The notes below the pieces were generated by a model, which saw only the letters and a program-made list of their open reading frames with translations, was not told the DNA's origin and did no database searches. Made by a program: the position numbers and the translations under genes. Shown here piece by piece: positions 7,371 through 64,000 of a DNA stretch of 64,000 nt. Source of the DNA: an uncultured Chloroflexia bacterium (GTDB lineage Bacteria; Chloroflexota; Anaerolineae; Anaerolineales; Villigracilaceae); NCBI GenBank assembly GCA_963757465.1, contig CAVWRY010000002.1, forward strand, positions 72,905 through 136,904. Direction: 5' to 3'. The first letter of the stretch is position 1, and each line of letters opens with the position of its first letter.

Positions 7371-7377
7371 TCAATGC

Positions 7378-7440: not shown

Positions 7441-7445
7441 TTCCT

Positions 7446-9286: not shown

Positions 9287-9387
9287 CTAAACAAGGTTAT
9301 CGGGCAAACGCCAGTCAGCCGTAGGGCAGGCGTCAAGCAGTTCGCAGCCACACGTGATAAAGTAAGGCTACTTCTCCTCCTTAACAA

Positions 9388-9420
9388 AGAGAGCCGGGGT
9401 CGGCGTCCCCGGCTCTCTTG
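9388..9420 (+). terminator. putative rho-independent terminator
   Basis: agagagccgggg-tcggcgt-ccccggctctct: 12-bp GC-rich stem with a weak T tract. Confidence 0.55.
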
Positions 9421-9498
9421 ATTCCTGTAAACCTGTTGATTTTGATCGTATGGGGCTAAAATCAATCAACCGTGTCTGATTGTCTTACAGGAGAAAAC

Positions 9499-30819: not shown

Positions 30820-31478
30820 TTATTGCTTCTGTACAAATTTACGCCCACGCCTACGTTCGGTGACAATAAAGGCATGGTTACGGCAAACTTTTGCCAGCCG
30901 TAGGCGTAGTCGATGAAATTCGGCGTTAAACATATCTGGAGTTACGCCATTGTAGGCATGTTCATCCGGCCAACTGGCAGCCGCGATTTCGTCTTTGGTC
31001 ACGTATGGTTCGGGAGTTTGATCTTTTTAATCAGTAAAGCCAAAATGGTAAACTGACGTTTGCTTAATTTGGGCGTCAGGCGCTGATTGTCAACCCATAC
31101 TTCGCGCCGTTCGAGATCAAGCCACAGGCCGTTGATGACCTGATGACTGCTTTCGCTGGCGGTTTGGTTGGGGTCGTCAAAATGAAAGATCAGCGTCGCC
31201 TGCGCCGCCAGTTGAATGCGGTCTCCATCTTTAAGGATTTCGGTTTCAATTTTGAGATTATTCAGGCGGGTGCCATTCTTGCTTTTCAGGTCTGTCAGCA
31301 CCCAGCGCTCATTTTGTAAGGCGATTTGCGCATGGCGGCGCGAGATTCTTTCGTGCAGAATAGCATAGTCGCTCAAATCATCGCGCCCCAGCACAAGTTT
31401 GCTGCCAGTAATCTGGATTTCAGCCCCCGCACCAGGGCCTGTTTCAATCGTTAAATAAGGGTTACGATTCATCTGCAT
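30820..31478 (-). pseudogene. FHA-domain plus OmpR-type winged-helix regulator, split by a frameshift (pieces 30999-31478 and 30820-31002)
   Basis: FHA 'LVLGRD...ISRRHAQI...LTDLKSKNGTRLN'. The wHTH starts 'LTPKLSKRQFTILALL' and continues in the next frame 'TKDEIAAASWP...FHRLRLRLAK...IVTERRRG'. The shift is at an A5 run near 31012. Confidence 0.75.
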
Positions 31479-31518
31479 GATCCTTTTAATGATGGTTGAT
31501 TCAGAAAAATTATATATT

Positions 31519-32526
31519 ACGTCTGATGTGAAATCAAAAAGTGGTTTGAAAAGTTTGAATATCGATATTGAAATCTGAGAAAAGAATACGGCGTAATAAA
31601 TGGCTAGTCATTTTGAGAATTACACGAGTTGATAAACCGAGCACAGTTTTGCAAAGCAAACGTTCAATATTACGCCCAGTATTTTGGATTTCATGGAAAA
31701 CACCTTCGATACGTTCCCTAGTTTTGGAAAGCCAGCGGTCAAGTTCTTTCGAATTTTGAAGGTGCTGATTAGAACGTTTTGGTGTCCATATCAAATTATT
31801 GGTTTGCTCAAAAATATTGGTCTGCCACTCAAAACCGATAAAACCCTTATCAGCAAAAATATCACAATATGTCAGATGATCAATGACCGCTTCTGCGGCA
31901 AAACGTTCATCTAAATTAGCTGGAACCAGATCATAAATAACAGGAATTCCTTGTAAAGTGGAAATTGTGACCAATTTGTAGCCGAAGTAATCCATTTTGC
32001 GGCTGGCACAATGTCCATAATCGGCACTCCCAGCAAAATCGCTTCTGTTTTTGCGTCTTTTGTAGCCAAGAACTGGCACAGGTTTGGTATCTAGCAGATA
32101 TTTGTTATGCAAATGACAGTGCTTTTGAACAATCCAGTAGCGTCTCAATTGTTCCACCAGCAGACGTAATGCCCGTGCTCGACGATTGAACTGGCTTTGA
32201 TCCACTAATCTTGGAAATAGTGCCAGATAGTTGGCCCGAATAAACTCGACATACTGCGTTTCGCTCGGATAGGGAATGTAATCTTGCGCCAGCATCAATG
32301 TCATCAACTCGCTATCTTTGAATTCAGGCTTCTTACCAGCTTTTCCTTTCAGTAGTTTCACGCCTTCTATTTCGTACCAATCATCTACCAGCACATAGAT
32401 GATCGTTAAAACATCAGAAATGGTTATACTTGTCATGGGAATGTCCTTTCAAGATTTCGTTTGGCGACTTTATCTTGAAGGCATTCCCAATTCCTGTCAA
32501 TATTTCTTCGATTTCACATCAGACGT
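31519..32526 (-). mobile_element. IS982-family-like insertion sequence (~1.0 kb)
   Basis: Perfect 17-bp terminal inverted repeats ACGTCTGATGTGAAATC (31519-31535) and GATTTCACATCAGACGT (32510-32526). Single DDE transposase ORF. Visibly AT-rich. No clear target-site duplication seen. Confidence 0.8.
31534..32436 (-). CDS. IS982-family DDE transposase
   Basis: 'VLVDDWY...KPEFKDSELMTLMLAQ', 'LLDTKPVPV', 'DYFGYKLV', 'IFADKGFIG'. 300 aa. Confidence 0.8.
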   Translation of the reverse strand: MTSITISDVLTIIYVLVDDWYEIEGVKLLKGKAGKKPEFKDSELMTLMLAQDYIPYPSETQYVEFIRANYLALFPRLVDQSQFNRRARALRLLVEQLRRYWIVQKHCHLHNKYLLDTKPVPVLGYKRRKNRSDFAGSADYGHCASRKMDYFGYKLVTISTLQGIPVIYDLVPANLDERFAAEAVIDHLTYCDIFADKGFIGFEWQTNIFEQTNNLIWTPKRSNQHLQNSKELDRWLSKTRERIEGVFHEIQNTGRNIERLLCKTVLGLSTRVILKMTSHLLRRILFSDFNIDIQTFQTTF

Positions 32527-32575
32527 TTGTCATAATTATGCTTATCTAAACATTCGATCTAGGTTGGGAATTGAT

Positions 32576-34840
32576 ATGGACTCGACTGCTTCTGAAAACG
32601 AAATGGATGTTAATAATCCGGGTTGGGTTGTGGATCCGCCCGGTTACCACCTTGTTGATCGGCTGGGCAAAGGTGGTATGGGGGTGGTTTATCGCGCTCA
32701 GGATTTAACGACTGGTCAGTTTGTCGCCATAAAATTTGCGACGGGAAATGCCGGGCTCAGGTTTCAGCGCGAGTATAGGCAGCTTGCCAGCTTGCAACAT
32801 CCCTATATCATCAAGGTTTATCGTTTTGATGAGCAAATGCAGTCGCCTTATATGGTGATGGAATATTTATCGGGGCAAACCCTTACTGCATATCTCCAGG
32901 GCTTTCCGGCAAAGCGTTTGCCGCTGCACATTGGTATTCCGCTTTTGTTGCAATTGACCGAGGCGTTGGTCTACCTGCACGAGCTGACTATTGTCCACCG
33001 TGATTTGAAGCCGCAAAACATTATGGTTTTGGGGGGGCGTGACCAACCCTATCTCAAGCTGATGGATTTTGGGCTGGCGCGCCCGGCCCAAGTTTCGCGC
33101 CCACTCACTGAAGACGGGAGCTTTCTCGGCACGGCGGACTATGCAGCGCCAGAGCAGTTTTTGGATGCTGCCAATGTTACAGTCCAAGCGGATTTGTATG
33201 CGCTGGGCGCCATCATGTATGAAATGTTTACAGGGCAGCGCCCGTTTGATGGAGCTGATCGCCAGACTTTGAAAGACCAGCACCTGAAGCTTTTCCCATT
33301 TCATCCAGCGCAGATTGCGCCCGAAATTCCTGCCAAGCTGGATGAGCTGATTCTGTCATTGTTGGCGAAACTCCCTGAAGAAAGGCCTTCTGGTGCGGGC
33401 GCAGTTCAATTTCTGCTGAACAGCATCCCGTTTGCGTCAGTGATGCCGCAACCTGTTTTGCAAACGATCAAGGGCAGCATTATCCATCAGCGTTACTGTA
33501 TTGGCGGTCAGCTTGGTCAGGGCGGGTATGCAACAGTTTACCGGGCAGATGATCTGGTGTTGGGCCAGCCAGTGGCGATCAAGGTCAATGCCGATGTTTC
33601 GGCCATTGCGCTGGAGCAATTTCAGCGTGAAGCAAAGCTTGGGAATTTGCAGCAACATCCCAGCCTGCCGCGCGTGCGTGATTACTTTGTGGAGGGTGGC
33701 GCCCAGTTCATTGTGATGGATTTCATCCCGGGGCGAAATCTGGTGCAGATATTGCAGGGTGGCCCCATCCCTGAGGCCGATTTGTTGCCCTGGGTTGATC
33801 AAATTTGCGGGGCGTTGAGTTATCTTCATGGGCAGATTCCGCCAGTGATTCATTGTGATATTAAGCCAGAAAATATCATTATTAGCAATGAAAATAATCG
33901 CGCCTATCTTGTCGATTTTGGCATCGCCAAAGTGATTTTATCTACCCAAGTAGATGGAGTTTCGTTGGTAGGCACACCTGGTTACGCTGCGCCAGAGCAA
34001 TATCGTGGCGCCCAGGCTTTGGATGTTCGGGCTGATATTTATGCATTGGGTGCGACGCTTTACCATACACTGACAGGTCGGCTTCCAACACTACATATGG
34101 CACCACATGAGCTAAATCCAGCAGTCTCGCTACGAACCAGTCGTACAATTGCGGCGGCGTTGACGCAAGACTTTGCTCAGCGCCCGGTCAGCGTTCAGGA
34201 GTTTAACGACATGTTGCATGGGCGTTCCCGTCGGTTGACGCGGCCCCAGATGGCAATGAGTTGTGGGCTTGCAGGGGTGGTGCTTTTGATGATGTTTTTA
34301 GGGATATTCTTGTTAAGCTGGCTGGGTATTGCTGCTGCCGCCCCACTCTTGATGCCAACGTCTACATCAACATCAACTCCAACTTTTACGCCCCGGCCAC
34401 CGCCCGTCAGGCGTGCCAGAACCCTTGTGCCGAAAGCAACCCGATCGCCAGTTCGTTTGGTGGTGTCGCGTACTGCTACCTTGACAGTTGCGCCAACCAT
34501 CAAGCTTCTTCCCAACAGTACGAACACGCCGACAAGGCGGATGCCGACAATGACCTTGGCGCCATCTGATACTGTTGCCTTGCTTTTGGTCGAGCCATCT
34601 GAAACCGCAGTTTTTGTGCCGTCAGAAACGCCGGCTCTTACCCTTACACCATCCATCACGCTGACGAAAGCGCCGTCAAAAACCCGGACTCTTACACCGA
34701 CGATCACACCGTCAAAGAGACCAACGACGACGGCGACATTTACGTTGACCAAGACCATATCACCCATCCCAACTGTGACTCAATCACGCACACCATCGGT
34801 TACGGTGACGTTCACTTTTAACTGCAACGATTACTTTTAA
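32576..34840 (+). CDS. Ser/Thr protein kinase with two tandem kinase domains, TM helix and Thr/Pro-rich tail (probably truncated by an indel)
   Basis: Domain 1: 'GKGGMGVVYRA', 'VAIKF', 'HRDLKPQN', 'DFGLA', 'APEQ'. Domain 2: 'GQGGYATVYRA', 'VAIKV', 'HCDIKPEN', 'DFGIA', 'APEQ'. TM 'GLAGVVLLMMFLGIFLLSWLGIAAAA'. Confidence 0.88.
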   Translation: MDSTASENEMDVNNPGWVVDPPGYHLVDRLGKGGMGVVYRAQDLTTGQFVAIKFATGNAGLRFQREYRQLASLQHPYIIKVYRFDEQMQSPYMVMEYLSGQTLTAYLQGFPAKRLPLHIGIPLLLQLTEALVYLHELTIVHRDLKPQNIMVLGGRDQPYLKLMDFGLARPAQVSRPLTEDGSFLGTADYAAPEQFLDAANVTVQADLYALGAIMYEMFTGQRPFDGADRQTLKDQHLKLFPFHPAQIAPEIPAKLDELILSLLAKLPEERPSGAGAVQFLLNSIPFASVMPQPVLQTIKGSIIHQRYCIGGQLGQGGYATVYRADDLVLGQPVAIKVNADVSAIALEQFQREAKLGNLQQHPSLPRVRDYFVEGGAQFIVMDFIPGRNLVQILQGGPIPEADLLPWVDQICGALSYLHGQIPPVIHCDIKPENIIISNENNRAYLVDFGIAKVILSTQVDGVSLVGTPGYAAPEQYRGAQALDVRADIYALGATLYHTLTGRLPTLHMAPHELNPAVSLRTSRTIAAALTQDFAQRPVSVQEFNDMLHGRSRRLTRPQMAMSCGLAGVVLLMMFLGIFLLSWLGIAAAAPLLMPTSTSTSTPTFTPRPPPVRRARTLVPKATRSPVRLVVSRTATLTVAPTIKLLPNSTNTPTRRMPTMTLAPSDTVALLLVEPSETAVFVPSETPALTLTPSITLTKAPSKTRTLTPTITPSKRPTTTATFTLTKTISPIPTVTQSRTPSVTVTFTFNCNDYF

Positions 34841-34854
34841 CGGTTACCCCATCA

Positions 34855-35421
34855 ATGACACCAAGAGAAATAGCAGCGCTTACACCAACGGTGACACCAT
34901 CTTTTACTTTTGCAGCGTCAACACTAACATTATTTCCCACTCCGGGGCCAATGATTGTTAATGCAGTAATTTCCCCCGTTTATACAACTTGTGCTTCTAC
35001 CGCTTGGTATAAAATTGTAAATGCAGGGTATGACAGCACTGATCTTTATTTGACTCTAAACACAAATGTGGCCGCCAACTCTACAAACCATGCTACATGG
35101 ACTCCTAATTTGCCTCTTTCTGGGCGCTATAAAGTTGAAGCATTTGTTGCTTTTCATAACCAGATTACATTTTGCGGTCCCAAAACCACTATCGGGTATG
35201 ATACATCTAATGCACGGTACAAAGTTTATCAAAATGGCTCTTTGTTTCAGACAGTGTCAGTTGACCAGAAACCATTAAATAACCAATGGGCTACTATTGG
35301 GACATATCGTTTTATGGCTGGTGTAGATAGCTATGTGGTTCTCACTGATCTTAACGGTAAATCTTCATTAACTCGAACTGTCTCGTTCAACGTATTACGT
35401 TTTACATATGTAGGCCCTTAG
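34855..35421 (+). CDS. golvesin C-terminal-like (carbohydrate-binding-like) domain ORF, probably the detached C-terminus of the kinase
   Basis: No signal peptide. Begins inside a TP-rich linker. 'ATWTPNLPLSGRYKVEAFV...YKVYQNGSLFQTVSVDQKPLNNQWATIGTY'. One extra T in the T4 run before 34840 would fuse it in frame to the kinase. Confidence 0.6.
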   Translation: MTPREIAALTPTVTPSFTFAASTLTLFPTPGPMIVNAVISPVYTTCASTAWYKIVNAGYDSTDLYLTLNTNVAANSTNHATWTPNLPLSGRYKVEAFVAFHNQITFCGPKTTIGYDTSNARYKVYQNGSLFQTVSVDQKPLNNQWATIGTYRFMAGVDSYVVLTDLNGKSSLTRTVSFNVLRFTYVGP

Positions 35422-35993
35422 ATGTTTTATCCTTTGGCTGTTTACAAAAGCGCTTCTGAGAGTTTATTTCTCAGAAGCGCTTTTCTTCTTTCTATATATT
35501 TTTGTATTAGAGTTTAAGGGCCAACGTAGGTAAATCGTAGCACGTTAAAAGAAACGGTGCGCGTTAGGCTGGCTTCATTGTTGAGGTCAGATAAGACAAC
35601 ATAGTTGCCTATCCCACTAGAAAAACTGAATGTGCCTATTGTAGCCCATTGGTTATTCAATGGTTTCTGGTCAATTGACACTGTCTGAAATAAAGAGCCA
35701 TTTTGGTAAACTTTATATTGTGCATCAGATGTATCGTATCCAATTGTGGTTATAGGACCACAAAATGTAATCTGGTTATGAAAAGCAGTAAATTCTTCGA
35801 CTTTATAGCGCCCAGAAAGAGGCAAATTAGGAGTCCATGTAGCATGGTTTGTAGAGTTGGCTGCCACGCTTGTGTTGAGAGTCACATAAAGATCAGTGCT
35901 GTCATACCCTGCATTTGCAATTTTATACCAAGCGGTAGAAGCACAAGTTGTATAAGCGGGGGAAAGTGCTGGATTGACAATAATTGGTGCAGG
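34942..35993. repeat. large inverted repeat (~480-bp arms, ~90-bp spacer) formed by the convergent 3' ends of 34855-35421 and 35514-37424
   Basis: The arms encode C-terminal modules that look mostly identical by eye (PGPMIVNAVISPVYTTCASTAWYK... versus PAPIIVNPALSPAYTTCASTAWYK...). Long runs of identical nucleotides are visible. Confidence 0.85.
35446..35484. terminator. bidirectional rho-independent terminator in the spacer of the inverted repeat
   Basis: aaaagcgcttctgag-agtttattt-ctcagaagcgctttt. Confidence 0.85.
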
Positions 35994-37424
35994 AAATGTT
36001 GGTGTGGGGGTGATTGTATTTGTTGGCACTTCCGCATTGGTTGGTGTGTAAGTTGTTGTAATTACTGGTGTGATAGTGGCTGTTTTAATAACTAGAGTGG
36101 CCGTGACGGTAGGTGTTTTGGTCCGTGTAGGCGTTATTGTTGGAGTTATGATCGTTGGATTGTGCAGCCACCCACTTACTGCCATACTGTTTTGCACTTT
36201 CCAGTTGACAACATTTAGGTTTTTGCTACCTTTGGCAGATGCGTTTTGCTCAACAATTGTAATTGTGCCATTGCCGCTTGCGTTGACATTAGATGCTGAA
36301 ACTACGCTGGTATGTCCAAAGGTTGCACTGGGGCCGTAGCTTAATACGTCACCAGCCTTGGGAGCATTTCCAATACTTCCATTGCCAAATTTTTTAAGTT
36401 TGGTACCTTTATAGTTCCATACAACATCTTTTCCGTTTGCACCATAAGGGGCGATACCATAAGCATCGTACAGATACCGCATACTTAATTCAACACATTC
36501 CCATTCATATTCACCCCACGCACCTGGGAAAAATCGGACAAGAACATCTGGGCCCTCTCCGTAATATGGGCGCGGTCCGCATGCTTTCACTCCTCTATAA
36601 GATCCTCCCAGTGGATAGGCTTTCTTGTGGCCCGAGCGAGCATAATAATAATTGGTATCGCAATCCCCATGCCACCAGCTTGGCGTAGGCAGGTTCGTAA
36701 AGCCGCTCAGGTTGAGTTCTGGTTCTGGGCTTTGCGCTTGGGCGGCTTCATTTTGTAAGCTTTTAAGCAGGGTAGATGCCTGCACCAAATTGGAGCTGCT
36801 CATACTGAAGTTGGTGAACAGCGCATTTATACTCACTGCAGTCATTCCTTGACTGTACTCTTGGCTGGCACGCACAATCCATAGTCTTTTTCCAGCTTCG
36901 ACGACCCATTCGGTGATAAGCACAGGTTTTTCAACATCTGAATTAGTCTTGATCTTGACCAGGCTTGTTGAACCCACCACCTGCTTTCCGAAAAGGGTGA
37001 TAGGCTGGCTTGGTTGTGGTGTTCCGCCTTGCCTAATGCGATATTTTTGCAAAAGGTTGCGATATTGTCCCGCCATGCCGGCTTGGGCAACGGGCAAATC
37101 TTCCGATGACAATTTTGTTCCAAACGGGACTGCCATGACTGAAATTTCTCGGAATTGGTCCCAACCGACAGCCGTTGCTACCTGCATACTATTATCGGGC
37201 TCGGCCACAGTAAACGTATCTGGTAAAAATGATGTGCAGATATTCAGCGCGACACCATCCAAGGTGAAAGCTGCGTTTTGCAAGCTGGTATTTTTGCAAA
37301 TATTCGTTTTCGCGTTGCTTTGTTGGCCCTGCGCAGAAGCAGTCGAAGGGGAGATATTCAATCCACTGATTACAAGTGCAAGTAAGACAACAAATAACGC
37401 AACCTTCCATGTTTTGATCTTCAT
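35514..37424 (-). CDS. secreted CHAP-domain peptidoglycan hydrolase with TP linker and golvesin C-terminal-like domain
   Basis: AGGAG RBS. Signal peptide 'MKIKTWKVALFVVLLALVISG...ASA'. CHAP 'YEWECVELSMRYL...GDVLSYG...FGHTSVV...VEQN'. Confidence 0.85.
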   Translation of the reverse strand: MKIKTWKVALFVVLLALVISGLNISPSTASAQGQQSNAKTNICKNTSLQNAAFTLDGVALNICTSFLPDTFTVAEPDNSMQVATAVGWDQFREISVMAVPFGTKLSSEDLPVAQAGMAGQYRNLLQKYRIRQGGTPQPSQPITLFGKQVVGSTSLVKIKTNSDVEKPVLITEWVVEAGKRLWIVRASQEYSQGMTAVSINALFTNFSMSSSNLVQASTLLKSLQNEAAQAQSPEPELNLSGFTNLPTPSWWHGDCDTNYYYARSGHKKAYPLGGSYRGVKACGPRPYYGEGPDVLVRFFPGAWGEYEWECVELSMRYLYDAYGIAPYGANGKDVVWNYKGTKLKKFGNGSIGNAPKAGDVLSYGPSATFGHTSVVSASNVNASGNGTITIVEQNASAKGSKNLNVVNWKVQNSMAVSGWLHNPTIITPTITPTRTKTPTVTATLVIKTATITPVITTTYTPTNAEVPTNTITPTPTFPAPIIVNPALSPAYTTCASTAWYKIANAGYDSTDLYVTLNTSVAANSTNHATWTPNLPLSGRYKVEEFTAFHNQITFCGPITTIGYDTSDAQYKVYQNGSLFQTVSIDQKPLNNQWATIGTFSFSSGIGNYVVLSDLNNEASLTRTVSFNVLRFTYVGP

Positions 37425-37662
37425 TTTTTTAGTCTCCTGAATGTGGATATTCGGTGGGTAAAAATTAATCAATCGAAGAAATGTTATTGATCTCAGTAAC
37501 CTGAGAAGGCTTTTTTCATAAATTCCTCCTTGCTTGAATGTTGTTGAACTTGCCTGTATTGTAGACTGCGTATTCCCCCTAGACCATTGCCTTGACTATG
37601 ACGATTTCTGGCTTTAACCTGACGTTTTCTGCGCAAATCTGACGACAATCGATTGGAGAATG

Positions 37663-37723: not shown

Positions 37724-38857
37724 CTACCCGGCCCAGACCTTGCCCGCTGGGACGATGGCCCTGGCTGGAACGTCTGCCAGCAGCACAGCGCCATTGCCGA
37801 TGCGTGCTCCTGCGCCGATCTTGAGCCCGATGATGGTGGTGACGCCCATGCCGACCAGTGCGCGCTCGCCCACATGGACGTGGCCAGCCAGCAGTGCGCC
37901 TGGCGCAATGTGGCTGTAGGCGCCAATCTCGCAGTCGTGCGAGATGATTGCGGCAGTATTAATCATGCAGCGCTCATGCAAAATCACTTCAGAGCCAACG
38001 TAGGCGTTAGCAAAAATCTGTACGCCGTCGGCGATGCGGGCGCTGGCTTCGACGGTGGCGCGGGGATGGCGCAAAATGGGGAAGGCGAAACCGCTGCTGG
38101 CGAGCAATTCAAACAGGCGGATGCGCACGTCAATATTGATGATGCCCCCGACGCCGTTGGCTGCCAGATGAAAGCCCTGTGCCATTAATGGTTTTAGCAT
38201 TTCACTGCCCCCGAGCACCTGCACGCCTAGAACAGAGTTGCCTTTCAAGGCTTTATTATCGTCAAGGATGCCGGCGATGTTGAATGCGCCAATGGCCCGC
38301 ACCATTTCGAGCACGGTTTTGGCGTGTCCGCCTGCGCCGTATAGGATCATTTGAGAGTTGGAAGATGGGAAAATCTGGGGTGGGGGAACTGCGGAATTGG
38401 GAGCAAGCGAGCGGATGAAAGCTTCGGTAACAAGGCGATCTGTAGGAAGTGTGGAAAGGTCGAGGCCGAGTGATTCCGCCAGTGCGCGGGCTGGTTTGGT
38501 GATGCGCAGGTCAGAAGGCGGAAGGGGTTGCCCTGGGTGTGTCGAAGGGATGAAGGATGAAGGATGAAGTTTCGAAGCAGAAGAAAGGCTACGGGGAGCG
38601 TGTTCGATGGCTTCATCCGCAGTGGCTGTGATAAAGGCCAGCACATCCCCCACCGCGAGCGTTTCCCCTTGGGTGGCAATCATGCGCACAAACCCGGCGG
38701 CTGGAGCTTCCACGTCTGCTGCGGCCTTGGTGGTTTCGATGGTGAAGAGCAGGGCATCTTTTTCAACACGCTGACCATCGGCAATATGCAATTGCACAAG
38801 GCGTGCTTCTGGTTCGTTGGCATTTAACATTGGGATGGGCACGGGGATTTGGTTCAC
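37724..38857 (-). CDS. lipoyl domain + E3-binding domain + NeuD/PglD-type hexapeptide acyltransferase fusion (non-canonical E2)
   Basis: Lipoyl 'LLFTIETTKAAADVEAPAAGFV'. PSBD 'ITKPARALAESLGLDLSTL'. NeuD N-subdomain 'ILYGAGGHAKTVLEMV'. LbH repeats 'IISHDCEIGAYSHIAPGALLAGHVHVGERALVGMG'. No DHRxxDG motif. Confidence 0.8.
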   Translation of the reverse strand: MNQIPVPIPMLNANEPEARLVQLHIADGQRVEKDALLFTIETTKAAADVEAPAAGFVRMIATQGETLAVGDVLAFITATADEAIEHAPRSLSSASKLHPSSFIPSTHPGQPLPPSDLRITKPARALAESLGLDLSTLPTDRLVTEAFIRSLAPNSAVPPPQIFPSSNSQMILYGAGGHAKTVLEMVRAIGAFNIAGILDDNKALKGNSVLGVQVLGGSEMLKPLMAQGFHLAANGVGGIINIDVRIRLFELLASSGFAFPILRHPRATVEASARIADGVQIFANAYVGSEVILHERCMINTAAIISHDCEIGAYSHIAPGALLAGHVHVGERALVGMGVTTIIGLKIGAGARIGNGAVLLADVPARAIVPAGKVWAG

Positions 38858-39058
38858 AAAATGCTCCTTTTGCTGTTGAAATTTTACCTAGTTTCAGTCT
38901 ATAATCAGTGTAACGTCTTGATACTTGGATGGGTTGTACATTAGTCGTGTGTTTAATACAGGGTGGTGTCACTAAGTATTGTTGGATGTAAGTGTTTGTG
39001 CGGGGTTTCCCAATTATCTAATTTTCGCTCATCAACTATGGAAAATACAAGGAGAAAA

Positions 39059-39484
39059 ATGAATTGCTATTATCACCCCAATCTTGAAGCAGTGGCTACT
39101 TGTGTAGTTTGTGGAAAAGCGATATGTTCAAATTGCTCAGTGAATGTTGCCGGCAGAATTACCTGCCAGTCTTGTGTATCTTCAGGGAATGTTGGGCGTC
39201 TTCAAACTCAATCAAGCCGACCAACCAATATTCTTGCGATTATTAGTCTTATTTTGAGCATTATGGGGTTATGTACGGGTATATTTGCGATTCCTGCATG
39301 GATTACTGGCTATATCGCGGAGAAGCAAATCCTGGCGAACCCAAACCAGGATGGTTTGCAAATGGCGAAAGCCGGAAAAATAATCGGCATGGTGGTAACC
39401 ATCATTTATGGTCTTCTTTTGGTATGTTATATTCTGTTAGTGATTGTCAGTTTTATATTTTCTTTAAGCCAACAAAGGTATTAA
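39059..39484 (+). CDS. zinc-ribbon (B-box-like) membrane protein, DUF4190-like C-terminus
   Basis: AAGGAGA RBS. 'MNCYYHPNLEAVATCVVCGKAICSNCS...CQSC'. Two C-terminal TM helices. Confidence 0.75.
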   Translation: MNCYYHPNLEAVATCVVCGKAICSNCSVNVAGRITCQSCVSSGNVGRLQTQSSRPTNILAIISLILSIMGLCTGIFAIPAWITGYIAEKQILANPNQDGLQMAKAGKIIGMVVTIIYGLLLVCYILLVIVSFIFSLSQQRY

Positions 39485-39526
39485 TAACCTTTGACCACTT
39501 ATTATAATTCAGAGGAGAGTGCGCAC

Positions 39527-39967
39527 ATGAATTGTTATATTCACGCCGAAAATCAGGCAGTAGGAGCTTGCACCAGTTGTGGAAGACCCATCTGTCAAGA
39601 ATGTGCTTTAGAAGTGCAAGGCAAGTTGGTTTGTCGGACCTGTCTTGCGGAGGGTAGAGTAAACACGGCTCGTCCAACCGATAAAGATCCAAACACGGCT
39701 TTTTTGCTCGAGCTCATCGGCGGTTTTCTGGGCTTTCTGGGAGTGGGGCATATCTATATCGGGCAAACCAATGACGGCGTACTCCGCCTTATTTTATGGA
39801 TACTCTATAACGTCATTGCATATATCACCATTACACTGCTAATTAGTGTTTTCATTGGTATTCTTTGCATTCCTATTCAGTTGGTTATTCAAATTTGCGT
39901 TCCGCTTTGGTCAGCGAACAATTTGAAGAATCAAATGCTCAAGAATGCTAGCGGTACGGGAGTTTAG
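39527..39967 (+). CDS. zinc-ribbon (B-box-like) membrane protein with TM2-like domain
   Basis: GAGGAG RBS. 'MNCYIHAENQAVGACTSCGRPICQECA...CRTC'. 'FLLELIGGFLGFLGVGHIYIGQ'. Confidence 0.75.
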   Translation: MNCYIHAENQAVGACTSCGRPICQECALEVQGKLVCRTCLAEGRVNTARPTDKDPNTAFLLELIGGFLGFLGVGHIYIGQTNDGVLRLILWILYNVIAYITITLLISVFIGILCIPIQLVIQICVPLWSANNLKNQMLKNASGTGV

Positions 39968-39980
39968 TTTTGTGCTATTC

Positions 39981-40013
39981 AAAAAAGGACACGGCGTCGC
40001 CGTGTCCTTTTTT
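39981..40013. terminator. bidirectional rho-independent terminator
   Basis: aaaaaaggacacg-gcgtcgc-cgtgtcctttttt. Confidence 0.85.
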
Positions 40014-40015
40014 AT

Positions 40016-41008
40016 TTAACCGACTTTTAATGCCGCCTGCATCAGATCAGCCTGCGCTGGCAAAATGGCATCTTCAATCGTTTTGGAGTTGCCAATCGGC
40101 AAATCGAGCGCGGCCACCCGTTTGATGGTGGTGCCGGGTAGGGCTTCAGCAGTTTGTGCGGCGACTTCCGCGCCCCAGCCCAGGCTGATGCTGCCCTCCT
40201 CGACGGTGAGCAAGCGTCGGGTGTGGCGCACAGAGTCGAAAAGCGCAGAAAGTTCAAAGGGGCTGAGTTGTGAAAAGAGCACAATCTCGGCGAAAATTTC
40301 GTGTTCCAACATCAACTCATTGGCGGCTGCCAGGGCAAGCTCAAAGTTGTAGCCATAGGTGGCAATCGTAAGCTGCGCGGATTCGGCGGTGCACAGCGTG
40401 AAGGTCGGGTATGCCCCTGCACTTTTCTCAATTTCCCAATCGACCAACTCCCCTTTTCCCAGCGTAAGCATCTGGCGGGTATAGAGTAATTTGTGTTCAA
40501 TGAACAGCACCGGGTCATCATCGTGGCGGATGGCGTGTTCCAATAAATCAGCCGGGTCGCCTAGGCAGTTGGGGGCGACAACCCGTAGCCCTGGTACCCC
40601 TAAAAATAGCTTTTCCAGCGACTGGGAGTGAGTCGGGCCATAGCCGCGCCGTCCGCCCATAGGTGCGCGAACAACAACCGGCACACGCACTTGCTCGTTA
40701 TACATCCAGCGAAATTTGGATGCGTGGTTAATCAGTTGATCGGCCATCAGGGTGATGAAGTCGCCGAACATGACCTCGACCACGGGTCGAAGTCCGCGCA
40801 GGGCCATGCCGTTGGCGATGCCCAAAATCGCCGCTTCCGAGATTGGCGTTGTCAATACCCGTTGCGAAAATTTTGTCGAAAGGCCGCGCGTCACCTTGAA
40901 CGCGCCGCCATAGGGGTCGAGAATATCTTCACCCAGCACAAAAACGCGCTCATCTGTTTCGAGAGCGTGGTGGAGGGCGTGGTTTAAGCGTTCGAGGGCG
41001 GTGGGCAT
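40016..41008 (-). CDS. 2-oxoacid (pyruvate/acetoin-type) dehydrogenase E1 beta subunit
   Basis: 'VFVLGEDI..YGGAFKVTRGL', 'RVLTTPISEAAILGIANGMAL.GLRPVVEVMF.DF', 'GPTHSQS'. Confidence 0.9.
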   Translation of the reverse strand: MPTALERLNHALHHALETDERVFVLGEDILDPYGGAFKVTRGLSTKFSQRVLTTPISEAAILGIANGMALRGLRPVVEVMFGDFITLMADQLINHASKFRWMYNEQVRVPVVVRAPMGGRRGYGPTHSQSLEKLFLGVPGLRVVAPNCLGDPADLLEHAIRHDDDPVLFIEHKLLYTRQMLTLGKGELVDWEIEKSAGAYPTFTLCTAESAQLTIATYGYNFELALAAANELMLEHEIFAEIVLFSQLSPFELSALFDSVRHTRRLLTVEEGSISLGWGAEVAAQTAEALPGTTIKRVAALDLPIGNSKTIEDAILPAQADLMQAALKVG

Positions 41009-41010
41009 AG

Positions 41011-41086
41011 GGTTTTAAAGTTGGAAGGTTACAGGTTGAAAGTTGAAAGCTATTGGCCTTGCAATTTTCAACTTTCAACCTTCAAC
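41011..41086. repeat. GTTGAAAG-octamer palindromic element (copy 3) filling the E1alpha-E1beta gap
   Basis: gttggaaggttacaggttgaaagttgaaag-ctattggccttgcaatt-ttcaactttcaaccttcaac. The last codons and stop of E1 alpha (VLKVES*) lie inside it. Confidence 0.6.
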
Positions 41087-41965
41087 ACGGGAAATGGATC
41101 TTTAAAGGCACGCGTGAAAGCATCATCCACGATCGCCAACACTTCGGTTTCGGCGGTAGCCCTTTGATTTTGGTCCAGGCGGATGGTGGGGGCCAGCAAC
41201 GGGTCGTGTTTTTTTGCCTGCTCAATTTCAGCACGGTCGCGGATGTCGTCGCCCTTGCTATGCGCCGAGAAGCGATACGTATGCAGGATCAAGGCTGCGG
41301 GGCGGGTTTGCCTGCGCACATAGCCAAGCGCCTCCTCAGCAGCAGCGTGAATCTCCAGTACATCGGTTGTGTCGCGTTCCCAGTGTTTGATATCAAAAGC
41401 CGTAAAACGCGCTGAAATGGAGCCTGCCACGCCCAGCGCAATCGGCGTGGTCTGGGCGTAACGATTATTTTCAACCACAAACAAGACAGGAATTTGCCAG
41501 AGTGAAGCAATGTTCAGGCTTTCGTAGAGCACACCTTCGCCCAGTGTGCCGTCGCCAATGAAGACCAGTGCCACATTGCCGGTTTGTTGGACTTTCTCGG
41601 CCAGCGCAGCGCCCGTTGCCAGCGGCACAATGCCGCCCTGAATGCCGTTCGAGTAAAAATTGCGCCACTGGATGTGCTGGCTGCCACCGCGCCCGCCGAC
41701 CAGCCCGGTGGCGCGGCCCATCAGTTCTTGCAGCCAATGCATACGGGTCGCCGCCGTAGGCGAGAAAATGTCCATGGCAGCGATGACTGCTAAAGACGAC
41801 ATCCCCGGCCCCGGCTGCGGCAAAAATACCGGCGGCGTCGGCTTCCTGCCCAATGTAGGCATGGGTTGTGCCAAAGAGCTTGCCGGTCGAAAATTCGGCT
41901 AGTGCGCGTTCTTCAAAGCGCCGAATAAGCAACATGGTGCGGTAGAGTGTGTAATGGTCAGTCAT
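41068..41965 (-). pseudogene. 2-oxoacid dehydrogenase E1 alpha subunit, split by a 1-nt frameshift (pieces 41471-41965 and 41068-41874 in the track)
   Basis: N-piece 'YRTMLLIRRFEERA...THAYIGQEA...HRCHGHFLAYGGDPYAL'. C-piece 'LQELMGRATGLVGGRGGSQH...IGDGTLGEG...ENNRYAQTT'. Removing one C near 41734 rejoins them. Confidence 0.8.
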
Positions 41966-41976
41966 GGGCTGGAATT

Positions 41977-43053
41977 TTACTTCAAATATGTGTCAAAAAA
42001 TGCAATGGTAAGTTTCATTGCCAGACTGAAATAGCCTGAAAGGTTGTGGTTGTCGTCCTTATAAGTATAGAGTTCAACTGTGCCACCCACTTGCTTAATT
42101 TGCGCTTCCAGCGTTTGCGAAAATGCCAGCGGCACTTCTTCATCTGCTGTGCCGTGATGCAGTTGAAGCGGGCCCGAAAGGTCTGCCAGATAGCTGTTGG
42201 CCGAGATCGAATCCCAGAAGGCCGGGTTTTCTGCAGGTGAACCATACGTTTCAATCCACTGGTCGCGCCAGCGGCGCGAATCGGGTGGCGGTGTTGGTGT
42301 CATGGCGGCGGTATTGTGCCAGCGATAGAGTAAGTCAGGATATGATGCGACCACCCCTGCCCAGATTACGCCAACTTTGATGCTTTTGTCGATGACCATG
42401 GCGCGCAGCGTAAGGTATCCGCCCATGGAGTGGCCCCACATACCAATCTTTTGTGGGTTGACCTTTTCAAAGCGTTTGAGGGATGCAACGGCGTTGAGCA
42501 CATCCACCTCGTAGCCTGGGTCGCCATACGCCCCAGCCGCTTGGCCTTCCGACTGATCGTGCCCGCGATAGTCAATGCGAAAAACAACGTAGCCATTCAG
42601 CGCCAGTTGATTGACATACTCAATATAGCGTTCGGTGGTCTTATAAATTTCCGGCGGAATGTAGCCGTGATTGAAAACAATCCCGGGCCAGCCGCCTGGG
42701 GGCATTTGCCCGTTTGGCACCGTCAGCAGCGCGTAGATTTTTAATCCTTGCGAAAGATAGTAAACGTAGTAACGCCGATAATTCGACCCGGAAACCAGCT
42801 CTTTGACAATCGTAATATCACTCCCAGGGTACTCTCCTTGACGCATGGCTGAGATGGAGAGCGGGAAGAGTGTCGGCGTGGCGGTTGGGAAGGCGGTGAC
42901 GGTGGGCGGGGGCGTCTGGCTGGGGGTGGGCGAGACGACCCTGATTTGTGGTTGCGCTAACGTGCTCGTTGCCGTGGCGGATGGGCGTGCTGCGGGGACG
43001 CATCCACATAGGAAAAAGCCAAAGACCAAAGAGATGAAGATTATTTTTTGCAT
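41977..43053 (-). CDS. lipoprotein, S9/alpha-beta hydrolase family (prolyl oligopeptidase-like)
   Basis: Lipobox 'FFLCGC'. Nucleophile elbow 'GMWGHSMGG'. 'HHGTADEEVP'. Confidence 0.82.
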   Translation of the reverse strand: MQKIIFISLVFGFFLCGCVPAARPSATATSTLAQPQIRVVSPTPSQTPPPTVTAFPTATPTLFPLSISAMRQGEYPGSDITIVKELVSGSNYRRYYVYYLSQGLKIYALLTVPNGQMPPGGWPGIVFNHGYIPPEIYKTTERYIEYVNQLALNGYVVFRIDYRGHDQSEGQAAGAYGDPGYEVDVLNAVASLKRFEKVNPQKIGMWGHSMGGYLTLRAMVIDKSIKVGVIWAGVVASYPDLLYRWHNTAAMTPTPPPDSRRWRDQWIETYGSPAENPAFWDSISANSYLADLSGPLQLHHGTADEEVPLAFSQTLEAQIKQVGGTVELYTYKDDNHNLSGYFSLAMKLTIAFFDTYLK

Positions 43054-43129
43054 GAGATTTCCTTGCACGATAAATAACAGTCCGATGCACATTGAGTATA
43101 CCCTGACTGAAACGTCGCTTCAAAAACCT

Positions 43130-45791: not shown

Positions 45792-46568
45792 ATGGACGAA
45801 ACCAACTTTCGCAAACGACTGGCTGACCTGCCGATTAAGCATATCCGCTACTTTGAAAGTATCGGCTCGAGTAACGATGATGCACTGGCGTGGGCGACGA
45901 GTGGCGCTCCTGATCTGTCACTGGTCTATGCCGAAGAGCAAACCAGCGGACGCGGGCGCATGGGCCGCACATGGTTTACGCCCCCCGGAACGGCACTCGC
46001 TCTCAGCCTGATCTTGCGCCCGACGGGGATGGAACGAAAAAATATCGGCTTATTCTCCGGGTTGGGCGCGCTGGCGCTCGTCAGCGCCCTCCAAAAACAC
46101 GGTATTACCGCCCAGATTAAATGGCCCAATGATGTATTGATCAACAACCGTAAAACAGCCGGGATTTTGGCCGAAGCCATCTGGATGGGGGATGAAGCGG
46201 AAAGTGTCGTGCTGGGCATGGGCGTTAACGTTGCCCCACAGTCGGTGCCGCCTTCTGAAATGCTCGGATTCCCCGCAACCTGTGTCCTGTCCGAGGCGGC
46301 GGTGCCTGTTGATCGCCTTGATCTGCTCCACACGCTGCTGCTTGAACTGATTGCATGGCGCACCAAACTGACGTCTGCTGAATTTTTGCGTACCTGGGAT
46401 GAAGCACTCGCCTTTCGGGGCGAGATGGTGCAGGTCTGGGCGGGCGAAGCCGAACCCATCACCGGGCAGGTGGACGGTATCGAAACGGATGGCAGCCTGC
46501 GGTTGAGTCTGAGCAATGGTGTCATCAAGGTAGTACATTTCGGGGAAGTCCATCTGCGCCCATTGTGA
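45792..46568 (+). CDS. birA: biotin--[acetyl-CoA-carboxylase] ligase (no HTH domain)
   Basis: 'EEQTSGRGRMGRTWFTPPG', 'IKWPNDVLINNRKTAGILAE'. Confidence 0.9.
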   Translation: MDETNFRKRLADLPIKHIRYFESIGSSNDDALAWATSGAPDLSLVYAEEQTSGRGRMGRTWFTPPGTALALSLILRPTGMERKNIGLFSGLGALALVSALQKHGITAQIKWPNDVLINNRKTAGILAEAIWMGDEAESVVLGMGVNVAPQSVPPSEMLGFPATCVLSEAAVPVDRLDLLHTLLLELIAWRTKLTSAEFLRTWDEALAFRGEMVQVWAGEAEPITGQVDGIETDGSLRLSLSNGVIKVVHFGEVHLRPL

Positions 46569-61983: not shown

Positions 61984-63288
61984 TTAGCTGGCGTTTTTTG
62001 GGGAGGGCTCCAGCGATAACTTTTGAAACCCTACAGCTATTAAATCATCATCATTTGGCTCTATTAATGGTTCCTTCTCTAAATTAAACATGAATATTAT
62101 GCCAAATATATCAAGCACAAATGGAGTGCCTGACTCTAAATCTTTATGAGTAACTCTTAAGTATGGATGTGGTTGAATACTTGTGCTTATCAGTACATTA
62201 TTAGGAAAACTCGTTTTACCATTTATGTAATCTCGTGCGAGATCAAATCTTGGTGACAATGCTACTTCAACACCCTGATTAAGTGCAACAAAACCTAAAG
62301 CAATTTTATATAGTGAACGACCAAGACGTATTGGATTAACAGGCTTTCCTTTAAAGTTCATATTCCAAGTGACCCAACCATCTCCAAGTTCTTGCTTGTT
62401 TGACATCCATCCCGATTTATCTTTTGCGGTTATCTTAATATGTCTTGGTTGCGTTTGTTCAATCGTCATATTATGAAAATTAGCTTTTGGAAGTTTTCCA
62501 GATTTTGTGTATGAAACATATTGAACTTGCAAAAATGCTATTGGCTCAAATTCCATGAGATATGAATCTAATCCTGACAATGTCTCATTATTACAACGGT
62601 CGCATACACAGCCCTTTGGCAAGACAGCTTCATCGTTACCTAACCCTTCTGGAAAAATATGCTCTTCTGATTGAAATGTATTATCTGACTTCAAACAATA
62701 TATACACTTTTTTACTTTTGTATCAGTAGCTTCCTCGTTTCCATCCTCGCTCTTTTGCCATTCTATAATCAAGTCGAATAATATAGAAATCAGGAAAAAA
62801 CCGGTGAGTGTATATGAGTAAAACTGATGCCAAAATAAAGGTCCTACAATGGGCGCTGACGAAAGTTCTCTTAAATCGTTCGAAATTTTCTCATCGTTCT
62901 GGAAAAATTCACCATCTGAAACCAAAGAATATATTTCATCTGCGGTGAACTGCTTATTATTTATTTGTATTGAAATCGGCCCCTGTTTCATAGAATTAAT
63001 ATAGGCATTGATTTTTTCTAATTTCTCTTCTGAAAGAATATGAGGCCCATTTTCTAGAATAAGGTTCAATATTTTTTCATAATGTAAGTCAGACTGATAA
63101 GCTAAAAATCTACGCATCAAAACAGCAAATTGTATTGAAATCTCTTGTCCTGGTGTGCTTACACTTGCAGAGAGCATCTCATTTTGAAAATTGATCTTAA
63201 ATGAAAATGAGCCTTGTGCAGCTATATCAGGCATCAATTTGCGGACTTTATGATAATGGCGCTTGAAATCTCTAACAAATTTTTTCAT
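61984..63288 (-). CDS. HNH_5-like endonuclease with unrecognised ~190-aa N-terminal domain
   Basis: 'KCIYCLKSDNTFQSEEHIFPEGLGNDEAVLPKGCVCDRCNNETLSGLDSYL' (CxxC...H...CxxCN). Hydrophobic segment 'FYSYTLTGFFLISILFDLII'. AT-rich. Confidence 0.75.
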   Translation of the reverse strand: MKKFVRDFKRHYHKVRKLMPDIAAQGSFSFKINFQNEMLSASVSTPGQEISIQFAVLMRRFLAYQSDLHYEKILNLILENGPHILSEEKLEKINAYINSMKQGPISIQINNKQFTADEIYSLVSDGEFFQNDEKISNDLRELSSAPIVGPLFWHQFYSYTLTGFFLISILFDLIIEWQKSEDGNEEATDTKVKKCIYCLKSDNTFQSEEHIFPEGLGNDEAVLPKGCVCDRCNNETLSGLDSYLMEFEPIAFLQVQYVSYTKSGKLPKANFHNMTIEQTQPRHIKITAKDKSGWMSNKQELGDGWVTWNMNFKGKPVNPIRLGRSLYKIALGFVALNQGVEVALSPRFDLARDYINGKTSFPNNVLISTSIQPHPYLRVTHKDLESGTPFVLDIFGIIFMFNLEKEPLIEPNDDDLIAVGFQKLSLEPSPKNAS

Positions 63289-63393
63289 AAGTAAATGTTA
63301 TTCCATTACACAGCCAGCTAATTACAGCTTATGCCGCGCATGTATGAAAAACCAGATAAGAAAATTATAGCACCAGCAGCCTTGTTTTTGCTT

Positions 63394-63816
63394 TTATCGC
63401 TCCTGCTCAAACAGCGTATGATTGGCATTGATCTGCAGCAAGTCCCACCAATTGCCATATAAATCTTCAAAAACAGCCACCAGTCCATAGGCTTCTTCTT
63501 TTGGGTCTCGCACGAATTTGATGCCTTTGGCAAGCATCTCGTGATAATCGCGCCAGAAATCATCGGTGTTGAGAAATAAAAATACGCGTCCGCCGGTTTG
63601 GTTGCCGATGGAGGCCAGTTGTTCTGGTTTGGAGGCGCGGGCCAGCAGCAGGGTTGTTCCTGTCGAACCGGGAGGCGCGACAACCACCCAGCGTTTGTCC
63701 TGTTCTGGTTGATAGGTATCTTCCACGAGGGTAAAGTGAAGCTTTTCAGTATAAAAAGCAATCGCTTCGTCATAATCTCTGACAACCAACGCGATATGGA
63801 TGATGGATTGTTTCAT
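63394..63816 (-). CDS. VOC (glyoxalase/bleomycin-resistance/dioxygenase) family protein
   Basis: 'IIHIALVVRDYDEAIAFYTEKL', 'RVFLFLNTDDF', 'YGLVAVFEDLYGNWWDLLQ'. Confidence 0.85.
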   Translation of the reverse strand: MKQSIIHIALVVRDYDEAIAFYTEKLHFTLVEDTYQPEQDKRWVVVAPPGSTGTTLLLARASKPEQLASIGNQTGGRVFLFLNTDDFWRDYHEMLAKGIKFVRDPKEEAYGLVAVFEDLYGNWWDLLQINANHTLFEQER

Positions 63817-64000
63817 TGTTCTCTCTATTCTCTACAAAAACTTTTGTAAAAGTCTTTTTGCCACAGAGCGCACAGAGATTTTGAGAAAATCTTTTAAACG
63901 CTGGTTTTCTCCGTGATCTCTGTGGCGAAGCTTTTTTCTACTGGGTACTACTTTCTACTGTCTGCTTTCCCCGCCATCCCCAGCTTCTTCATCACCACCG

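Follow-up and report, generated by a model that had tools for sequence, protein, structure and literature searches.

Lipoate-dependent enzyme systems of the known kinds discharge their acyl-lipoyl or aminomethyl-lipoyl intermediate to coenzyme A (CoA) or to tetrahydrofolate. The sugar acetyltransferases PerB, VioB, PglD, WeeI and the acetyltransferase domain of PglB (PglB-ATD) all N-acetylate the 4-amino group of nucleoside diphosphate (NDP)-4-amino-4,6-dideoxy sugars, and a dehydratase, an aminotransferase, such an N-acetyltransferase and a phosphoglycosyl transferase together make up the bacillosamine- or legionaminic-type gene set. Only five lipoate-dependent complexes had been characterised as of 2018 (PMC6067878). 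Here we describe a gene which joins these two kinds of machinery, at positions 37724..38857 on the (-) strand of a 64-kb window (the whole stretch of DNA that was analysed, from contig CAVWRY010000002.1 of an uncultured Chloroflexia bacterium). By open-reading frame (ORF), Pfam and TIGR03570 evidence its 377-aa product (hereafter the fusion) consists of a lipoyl domain, a linker, a peripheral-subunit-binding domain (PSBD), a second linker and a PglD_N plus left-handed beta-helix N-acyltransferase domain. Whereas known PglD-type enzymes are stand-alone proteins of ~200 aa with free acetyl-CoA as donor, the fusion adds a lipoyl domain and a PSBD and is coupled to the alpha and beta subunits of a 2-oxoacid dehydrogenase E1 component.

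The locus probably encodes an E1/lipoyl-driven module for the N-acylation of amino sugars which bypasses acyl-CoA. A first, sequence-only reading of the window had proposed a thiamine/lipoyl machine that passes its acyl group to a sugar, and the sugar-pathway genes found around the fusion in related genomes support this proposal, in which the direct lipoyl-to-amine step is one that we infer.

A lipoyl arm fused to a PglD-type N-acyltransferase

The fusion matches Pfam Biotin_lipoyl at aa 6-76 (39.8 bits), PglD_N at aa 170-249 (43.7 bits) and Hexapep (49.1 bits). An AlphaFold2 (AF2) model, built with 121 homologues and with a mean predicted local distance difference test score (pLDDT) of 91.1, has three folded modules: a beta-barrel at aa 1-80, a two-helix domain at ~115-152 and the PglD_N plus beta-helix part from aa 168. 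The barrel (38618..38857, (-)) is the swinging-arm lipoyl domain, it has pLDDT >90 and it matches the lipoyl domain of E2p 7b9k in a PDB sequence search (1.1e-10). It carries the motif IETTKAAADVEAP at aa 40, and in the model the lysine K44 of E-T-T-K-A (codon 38726..38728, (-)) sits in a beta-turn, 42-45, between strands 36-41 and 46-50; from conservation and the model we predict it to be the lipoylation site. In the alignment of 121 family proteins (28-50% identity) on which our conservation figures rest, K44 is invariant (121/121) and E41 is present in at least 90%, which bears out the swinging-arm lysine named by the sequence-only reading.

The second module, with the motif ITKPARALAESLGLDLSTL at aa 119, is the PSBD (aa 115-152; 38402..38515, (-)), with helices predicted at 121-129 and 145-151 (pLDDT ~90). 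A single-sequence search with Pfam E3_binding gave no match in the window fusion and was positive in four of the 121 family members; we set this negative aside because a profile search against the PDB was clearly positive. The profile (A3), built from 68 family linker segments, matched the solved PSBDs of E2 proteins (1w4i at 5.5e-8, 1w4j, 2eq9_C at 9.1e-6 and 6zzl, in a range to 9e-5), to which it aligns with a 3-residue loop deletion, and also the PSBD of an alpha/beta-hydrolase chain (7qjm), and the peripheral-subunit-binding motif claimed earlier is thereby confirmed. The modules are separated by linker 1 (aa 81-114; 38516..38617, (-)), which is Pro/Ser-rich with seven Pro and seven Ser in 34 residues, and by linker 2 (aa 153-167; 38357..38401, (-)), with pLDDT <50 at aa 93-109 and aa 154-164 respectively. 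As modelled, disordered Pro/Ser-rich linkers between the modules are classic swinging-arm design.

The catalytic half (aa 168-377; 37727..38356, (-)), with the motif ILYGAGGHAKTV at aa 171, is assigned by PDB sequence search and Foldseek. It had been read as a NeuD/PglD architecture in place of the chloramphenicol acetyltransferase (CAT)-like core of an E2, and Pfam, NCBIfam, PDB sequence search, AF2 and Foldseek agree with this. There is no Pfam match to the 2-oxoacid_dh core (PF00198) in the fusion or in its 121 aligned family members, the fusion sequence has no DH[RK]xx[DN]G motif nor indeed a 'DH' dipeptide anywhere, and no E2 core is present among the PDB-sequence and Foldseek matches to its C-terminal half; similarly, no gene for a 2-oxoacid_dh E2 core occurs in any of the Pfam-annotated neighbourhoods. 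Instead, aa 170-369 exceed the NCBIfam cutoff for TIGR03570 (NeuD/PglB/VioB; 176.3 bits vs. 160.8), as does a homologue from the distant locus L086 (168.1 bits). The closest PDB sequences are the Neisseria gonorrhoeae PglB acetyltransferase domain (4m98, 2.2e-30) and PerB (1.8e-28), then VioB and C. jejuni PglD, and Foldseek ranks PerB first (template modelling score (TM) 0.90, root-mean-square deviation 1.1-1.3 Å) and PglB-ATD second (TM 0.89), followed by VioB, PglD and WeeI. The TM to PerB, PglB-ATD and VioB is 0.87-0.90 over ~200 columns, and 0.83-0.90 across the whole relative set at 23-35% identity. The family named by the sequence-only reading therefore stands, with the correction that the fusion is most closely related to enzymes which N-acetylate NDP-4-amino-4,6-dideoxy sugars and not to the sialate O-acetyltransferase NeuD.

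Within the ISHDCEIG motif at aa 305, H307 (codon 37937..37939, (-)) is the predicted catalytic base, from conservation and from the alignment to PerB. The PerB residues opposite H307-D308 in the alignment are likewise HD and, on our inferred numbering, we take them to be His141-Asp142, the site mutated in PDB entries 4eaa and 4eab; the corresponding catalytic-base histidine of PglD is presumably His125. Each of S306, H307, D308 and also H264 is shared by at least 90% of the 121 sequences. In the nucleotide-binding subdomain the same level of conservation holds for G174, G176 and G177 in alignment A1, and for H178, D199 and D200 in A2, a set of closer sequences. Two features set the family apart from its CoA-dependent relatives. 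The loop A-N-G-V-G-G-I has a 3-residue insertion compared with them, as a 14-residue segment found in 111 of 121 members, and the C-terminal G-x-P-A-[KR] motif, which we take to be present as G-x-P-A-K in PglD, PerB and PglB-ATD, occurs in 0 of the 121 fusions. PDB relatives of this fold have been solved with CoA or acetyl-CoA, and the insertion and the missing motif may reflect a changed acyl donor.

A large family without a name of its own

The fusions form a large, conserved family that has no name of its own, with more than 100 clusters at 50% identity sharing the lipoyl/PglD architecture. A word-indexed search gave 1533 matches; the 120 listed span 63-100% identity, and PF00364 and PF17836 occur in every one of them, PF00132 in all except one truncated match. 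The sources name such proteins 'NeuD/PglB/VioB family sugar acetyltransferase', 'sugar O-acyltransferase', 'UDP-perosamine 4-acetyltransferase' or 'hypothetical protein'. An exhaustive search of 1.84 billion representatives found 458 proteins at E <= 1e-30, and among the best 150 of these, 120 have a length of 335-405 aa, most aligning end to end at 30-52% identity. Biotin_lipoyl and Hexapep are matched by 121/121 aligned relatives, PglD_N by 120/121 and the GCV_H model by 26/121. The recurrence of the three-part layout and the invariant lysine in all 121 places the architecture far beyond chance, and the window fusion retains every family-invariant residue.

A motif-limited scan of one genome per species, built from 23 closer sequences, found the fusion in 351 species genomes, mostly Chloroflexota; because of how it was built, the taxonomic picture that it gives leans to this phylum. 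The best 80 of the 351 are nearly all metagenome-assembled genomes (MAGs) of Chloroflexota/Anaerolineae, together with one Gemmatimonadales bin, and the wider spread takes in a Bradymonadaceae member and marine TARA contigs. Complete genomes are among the carriers of the fusion, e.g. GCA_041301925.1 (contig JBGLNI010000001.1). Full texts gave no description of a lipoyl domain combined with NeuD, PglD, a hexapeptide enzyme or an E1 in a polysaccharide cluster, most subscription-journal papers lying outside the coverage; one apparent match was discarded, as 'lipoyl' there means fatty-acyl.

Matches to the catalytic half that are unusually long (516-865 aa) were uninformative; most are tandem PglD-type duplications without a lipoyl domain. 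These have two to four PglD_N plus beta-helix units in one polypeptide (P0170 of 865 aa, P0254 of 638 aa, P0232 and P0260).

E1 genes are coupled to the fusion

The E1 genes of the window lie on the (-) strand, like the fusion. E1beta (40016..41008; 330 aa) is intact and matches Transket_pyr and Transketolase_C (Pfam), and E1alpha (41068..41965) matches E1_dh (Pfam) over two ORFs, being split by a single 1-nt insertion at ~41728. Their position agrees with the sequence-only reading, which put both on the same strand 1.1 kb away: E1beta and the fusion are 1158 bp apart, a gap occupied by two (+) strand membrane-protein genes. The indel it saw in E1alpha is also real in the assembly, with only one frame change detected by tblastn, at aa 79/80, caused by an extra A in GCTGCA[A]GAACTG. 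With the extra A removed, E1alpha is a 298-aa ORF, 93% identical to its orthologue at the related locus L003 with a ratio of nonsynonymous to synonymous substitution rates (dN/dS) of 0.094; against L003 the fusion has a dN/dS of 0.115 and E1beta 0.130. Judged by these ratios (0.09-0.13), all three window genes are under purifying selection, and one lesion combined with low dN/dS therefore points to an assembly error or a very recent event.

Linkage was counted by tblastn in 83 related loci, 67 of which extend at least 3.5 kb upstream of the fusion. The genes for E1alpha and E1beta are immediately upstream of the fusion, on the same strand, in ~62 of the 67. This association had been named beforehand as a point on which the sequence-only reading could fall, and it holds decisively. 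The E1 genes often end 20-50 bp ahead of the fusion or overlap its start. In several independent lineages E1alpha and E1beta are themselves fused into one polypeptide of ~650 aa (L001 at 7196-9181, L086 at 8002-10008, and L084, L089, L092 and L093), and here the stop codon often overlaps the first codon of the lipoyl-PglD gene. In the five loci that depart from this pattern of linkage, the genes upstream of the fusion are unrelated to E1. A homodimeric E1 of AceE/SucA type was considered for them and rejected on inspection of the sequences by eye, as the 1203-aa upstream gene resembles SMC and the others are unrelated.

The residues expected of an active, lipoamide-acylating E1 are conserved across these loci. 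Of 64 relatives, 63-64 have the GDG of the thiamine diphosphate (ThDP) motif in E1alpha, all 64 have its second Asn (N167) and 52 have N at the first position. The His of R-F-x-x-H-S-K-G-D-D in E1alpha is present in 64/64 relatives and the His of 'GPTHSQ' in E1beta in 65/66 family sequences; we take these two histidines to be the residues for reductive acylation of lipoamide in the E1 of pyruvate dehydrogenase (PDH) and branched-chain ketoacid dehydrogenase (BCKDH). Among solved structures, human PDHA1 and Pyrobaculum PDH E1beta come nearest, the best for E1beta being 1ik6 (1e-49). E1beta scores 211 bits against PRK09212 (cutoff 321) and the intact L003 E1alpha 258 bits against TIGR03182 (cutoff 393.85), thus by sequence the E1 is of PDH type but below the cutoffs of the pyruvate dehydrogenase equivalogs.

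Sugar-pathway genes accompany the fusion in related genomes

In a deeper Chloroflexota clade, at ~45% identity to the window protein, the recurrent operon consists of Bac_transf, E1alpha, E1beta, the fusion and DegT, often with a UbiA-family gene. Its Bac_transf gene encodes a PglC-type phosphoglycosyl transferase (225 bits) and its DegT gene a DegT/DnrJ/EryC1 aminotransferase (365 bits), with PseC and LegC as best NCBIfam families, and at least one of the two lies within 10 kb in 20 of 35 loci of this clade. Unrelated lineages, at 32-38% identity, show seven distant context types, five of which have the fusion in a polysaccharide-cluster setting. For example, L086 contains DegT, Acetyltransf_6, a deacetylase, a family 4 glycosyltransferase (GT4), a LegC-family aminotransferase (533 bits, above the 420 cutoff), a Polysacc_synt_2 4,6-dehydratase, Bac_transf, the fused E1alpha-beta and the fusion, the start of which overlaps the fused E1 gene. 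L090 is a PEP-CTERM/Wza exopolysaccharide locus with two DegT genes, Bac_transf, GT4s, a formyltransferase and a deacetylase, and L091 has Bac_transf, a GT4, an unannotated gene, a methyltransferase, E1alpha, E1beta, the fusion and a GT4. L093 has a GT1, a methyltransferase, DegT, Wzm/Wzt, fused E1alpha-beta, the fusion, YfhO and a GT2, and in L088 DegT directly follows the fusion. No other beta-helix N-acetyltransferase is listed in L086, L090 or L091, and L093 has one small Hexapep acetyltransferase gene besides the fusion. The genes of these clusters correspond to the bacillosamine- or legionaminic-type set named above. The fusion thus occupies the usual position of PglD in these glycan clusters, and a sugar acceptor is therefore favoured over CoA.

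Setting of the module in the window and its clade

The window's own clade comprises 49 sequences (L001-L048 and the window) at 49-89% identity to the query, and in it a membrane-protein gene on the opposite strand separates E1beta from the fusion. The slot in the window holds two zinc-ribbon/B-box membrane proteins (DUF4190, TM2-like; 38963-39484 and 39491-39967, (+)), and in 34 related loci a single opposite-strand DUF4013 membrane protein, thus the position of a small membrane protein is conserved and the family is not. In 16 window-clade loci the fusion is followed on the same strand, at a median of ~27 bp, by lgt (prolipoprotein diacylglyceryl transferase); lgt loci include L002, L008, L010, L015, L029, L032, L033, L040, L043, L044, L047, L048 and L074, and beyond lgt there is usually an opposite-strand sulfotransferase. 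This linkage hints that in the window clade the acceptor or pathway may be envelope-related in another way. Citrate synthase and malate/lactate dehydrogenase are among the housekeeping neighbours in L002, and no Lgt, DegT or Bac_transf was found on searching the 64-kb window. The simplest view is that the sugar-pathway partners of this clade are encoded elsewhere in the genome; alternatively, its acceptor may have changed.

The other surroundings of the module are of more local interest. An alpha/beta-hydrolase gene (41977-43092, (-)) stops 11 bp short of the E1alpha start codon; its Peptidase_S9/DLH-like product of 371 aa has a hydrophobic N-terminus as well as a Thr/Pro-rich linker. The gene has the same position in L003, and co-transcription with E1 is therefore possible, though in this sub-clade only. 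In the syntenic L003, MutY comes directly after the fusion; relative to it the window has an extra block of ~6.5 kb (30999-37472). The block includes an FHA-domain protein (30999-31478, (-)), a protein with two Ser/Thr-kinase domains (32399-34840, (+)) and an insertion sequence with a DDE transposase (31534-32436, (-)) bounded by imperfect inverted repeats of 47 nt (31492-31538 and 32507-32553). Two convergent genes (34855-35421, (+), and 35514-37472, (-)) end in near-identical Golvesin_C domains, the longer one also having CHAP, and over their 3' 480 nt the two make up an inverted repeat with 84% complementarity (34941-35420 and 35515-35994), the arms of which lie 94 nt apart. At the far end of the window, positions 62001-64000 have a guanine-plus-cytosine fraction of 0.385 vs. 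~0.50-0.55 elsewhere and may be foreign DNA or an AT-rich island.

Proposed mechanism

We propose that the PDH-type, ThDP-dependent E1alpha/beta would decarboxylate a small 2-oxoacid and reductively acylate lipoyl-K44 on the N-terminal arm of the fusion, with the PSBD tethering E1 and probably also a housekeeping E3 (the component which re-oxidises the lipoyl group). By way of the flexible linkers, the S-acyl-dihydrolipoyl arm would swing into the active site of the PglD-type beta-helix domain to which it is fused, presumably a trimer, and take up the site of the acyl-pantetheine of acetyl-CoA in PglD, PerB and PglB. A PglF-type dehydratase and a PglE/LegC-type aminotransferase would supply an NDP-4-amino-4,6-dideoxy-hexosamine. 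His307 would then remove a proton from the 4-amino group of this sugar, and attack of the amine on the thioester would give the N-acylated nucleotide sugar, with which a PglC-type phosphoglycosyl transferase would start a glycan. The dihydrolipoyl arm would be re-oxidised in trans. More tentatively, and as a possibility which we hold to be somewhat short of probable, the family may be an unrecognised class of lipoate-dependent system: one in which the E1-loaded lipoyl arm serves as a direct, CoA-independent donor, moving an acyl group from a 2-oxoacid or ketose onto bacillosamine- or legionaminic-type precursors, and in which the group may be other than acetyl (e.g. glycolyl, propionyl or hydroxyacyl), one without a cellular CoA-thioester pool.

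Several observations weigh against such a module. No credible E3 gene lies within 10 kb of the 83 loci by tblastn with an E. coli Lpd query, the sole match being in L005 (54 bits, 26%), and the same search found none in the 64-kb window, as the sequence-only reading had noted. No lipoate ligase was seen near the module, where the adjacent BPL-family gene is BirA. The motif around K44 is E-T-[TS]-K-A, not the canonical E-T-D-K-A. As the E1 is closest to the pyruvate type, the acyl group may be plain acetyl, for which there would be no obvious reason to bypass acetyl-CoA. In the window itself E1alpha is frameshifted, the window clade has no DegT or Bac_transf within 10 kb except for weak, distant matches in L005 and L024, and a clear glycan cluster is absent in two of the distant context types (L084/L092 and L089). 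Furthermore, the gene association fits direct transfer and a CoA-mediated relay in the same active site alike, and cannot separate the two.

Alternative explanations

The alternative that survives best, though we regard it as unlikely, is that the fusion is a non-orthologous E2, in which the beta-helix domain replaces the CAT-like core and moves the acyl group from dihydrolipoyl-K44 to CoA, within a minimal trimeric complex resembling PDH or acetoin dehydrogenase. CoA is a ligand of enzymes with this fold, and exchange between a thioester and a thiol is easy chemistry, yet the PglD_N subdomain and the His-Asp base are strictly conserved, and these are required by an acceptor amine and less so by a CoA thiol. 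The conserved PSBD implies a PDH-like assembly, and AcoC provides an analogy, as its swapped alpha/beta-hydrolase core still makes acetyl-CoA; against this, G-x-P-A-[KR] is missing from all 121 fusions, an argument which depends on the presumed CoA-binding role of that motif. The neighbours in the window clade are housekeeping genes with no sugar genes, but this synteny spans opposite-strand genes within one order and may be mere shared ancestry. For the PglD step, the fusion is the sole candidate in L086, L090 and L091 as well as in the PglC-E1-fusion-DegT operon of Chloroflexota.

It is quite improbable that the protein is a conventional, acetyl-CoA-dependent PglD to which a lipoyl-like domain and PSBD have been added as a tether or regulator, with E1 doing other sugar chemistry, such as the attachment of a C2 branch to a 4-keto sugar, or with the carrier domain biotinylated or unmodified. 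In paulomycin-type deoxysugar antibiotic pathways, E1alpha/beta has reportedly been proposed to attach a C2 branch. The invariance of K44 at the hairpin tip in 121/121 sequences makes a mere tether hard to explain. Its motif departs from E-T-D-K-A but still resembles lipoyl and GcvH sites (E-T-D-K-A and E-S-V-K-A, with the 26 GCV_H matches), unlike the M-K-M motif of biotinyl sites. E1alpha/beta pairs without a lipoyl carrier are reported in sugar pathways, as in the paulomycin cluster (PMC4802897), but the E1 here retains both lipoamide-acylation histidines, and the two disordered Pro/Ser linkers are a hallmark of a mobile carrier. The BPL_LplA_LipB-family gene at 45792-46568 ((+)) does encode a BirA biotin ligase (TIGR00121, 149.5 bits, cutoff 83.1), and in both the window and L003 it lies 3.8 kb away from E1alpha, yet it is not syntenic in more distant relatives. 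Biotinylation of K44 by this enzyme was considered and is unlikely, because of the type of motif, the linkage to E1 and a BirA synteny that is confined to the nearest relatives.

Lastly, we find it very doubtful that the module is an inactive relic in this genome, with its E1alpha broken by the 1-nt insertion at ~41728, E1 and fusion split by opposite-strand genes, an insertion sequence and other inserted genes beside the fusion and its sugar partners gone (no DegT, Bac_transf, Lgt or Lpd in the 64-kb window), since the lesion is single and resembles an assembly error, the repaired E1alpha (93% identical, dN/dS 0.094) is as constrained as E1beta and the fusion, and the window protein keeps all family-invariant residues.

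If the N-acylation module is as proposed, it would give the old lipoyl cofactor a new output and bring a new acyl-donor logic to the PglD/PerB family; on the more tentative reading it would also add a new lipoylated protein family to a short characterised list and provide a new way of diversifying bacterial surface glycans. Unusual N-acylated di-amino sugars would be predicted in the envelopes or exopolysaccharides of Anaerolineae and several other phyla. The annotation of members as plain sugar acetyltransferases would then be a systematic error in need of correction, and metabolic reconstructions of Chloroflexota MAGs probably take their E1 partners for pyruvate dehydrogenase.

Comparison with known systems

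The fusion shares with PglD, PglB-ATD, PerB, VioB and WeeI the PglD_N plus left-handed beta-helix fold and the catalytic His-Asp pair, and with PglD-type enzymes a genomic place beside a PglE/LegC-type aminotransferase and a PglC-type transferase. With the E2 proteins of the pyruvate, branched-chain and 2-oxoglutarate dehydrogenases it shares the order of a lipoyl domain with a lysine at the hairpin tip, a Pro/Ser-Ala linker, a PSBD, a further linker and a catalytic domain, as well as a heterotetramer-type E1 partner. Unlike them, it has no CAT-like core or DHRxxDG motif and no linked E3, its predicted acceptor is a sugar amine and not CoA, and it would be expected to form a trimer and not a 24- or 60-mer.

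AcoC is similar in that a swinging arm is mounted on a non-CAT catalytic domain with an E1alpha/beta partner, and it delivers acetyl to CoA. The lipoyl region of the fusion reaches 39.9 bits against the AcoC model NF011457 (cutoff 307), over aa 6-83 only, and the C-terminal half of the fusion is a beta-helix sugar N-acyltransferase and not, as in AcoC, an alpha/beta-hydrolase. LpxA and LpxD are beta-helix trimers that move an acyl group from acyl-acyl carrier protein (ACP) to UDP-sugars, in the case of LpxD giving an N-acyl product, and the LpxD-ACP complexes 4ihf and 4ihg are among the Foldseek fold matches of the fusion. The ACP that serves them is a separate, phosphopantetheinyl protein charged through fatty-acid synthesis, whereas the lipoyl domain of the fusion is in cis and would be loaded by E1.

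A functional parallel lies in natural-product biosynthesis, where the QncN/QncL/QncM and SclQ1-4 systems combine E1-like, lipoyl and acyltransferase parts to load a glycolyl unit onto an ACP (PMC6335953). As proposed for the fusion, a ThDP/E1 component and a lipoyl arm there serve a non-CoA acceptor in biosynthesis, outside central metabolism (PMC6335953). There, however, the acceptor is a carrier-protein thiol, the product enters a nonribosomal peptide synthetase and the 'acyltransferase catalytic domain' is assumed to be of canonical E2 type, whereas the fusion has a beta-helix domain and a predicted amino-sugar acceptor. What is new in the fusion is that an E2-type swinging arm and a PglD-type transferase, both of known kinds, are joined in a logic of which we found no earlier description, and by analogy the precedents of AcoC, Qnc/SclQ and LpxA/LpxD make each of the proposed steps plausible.

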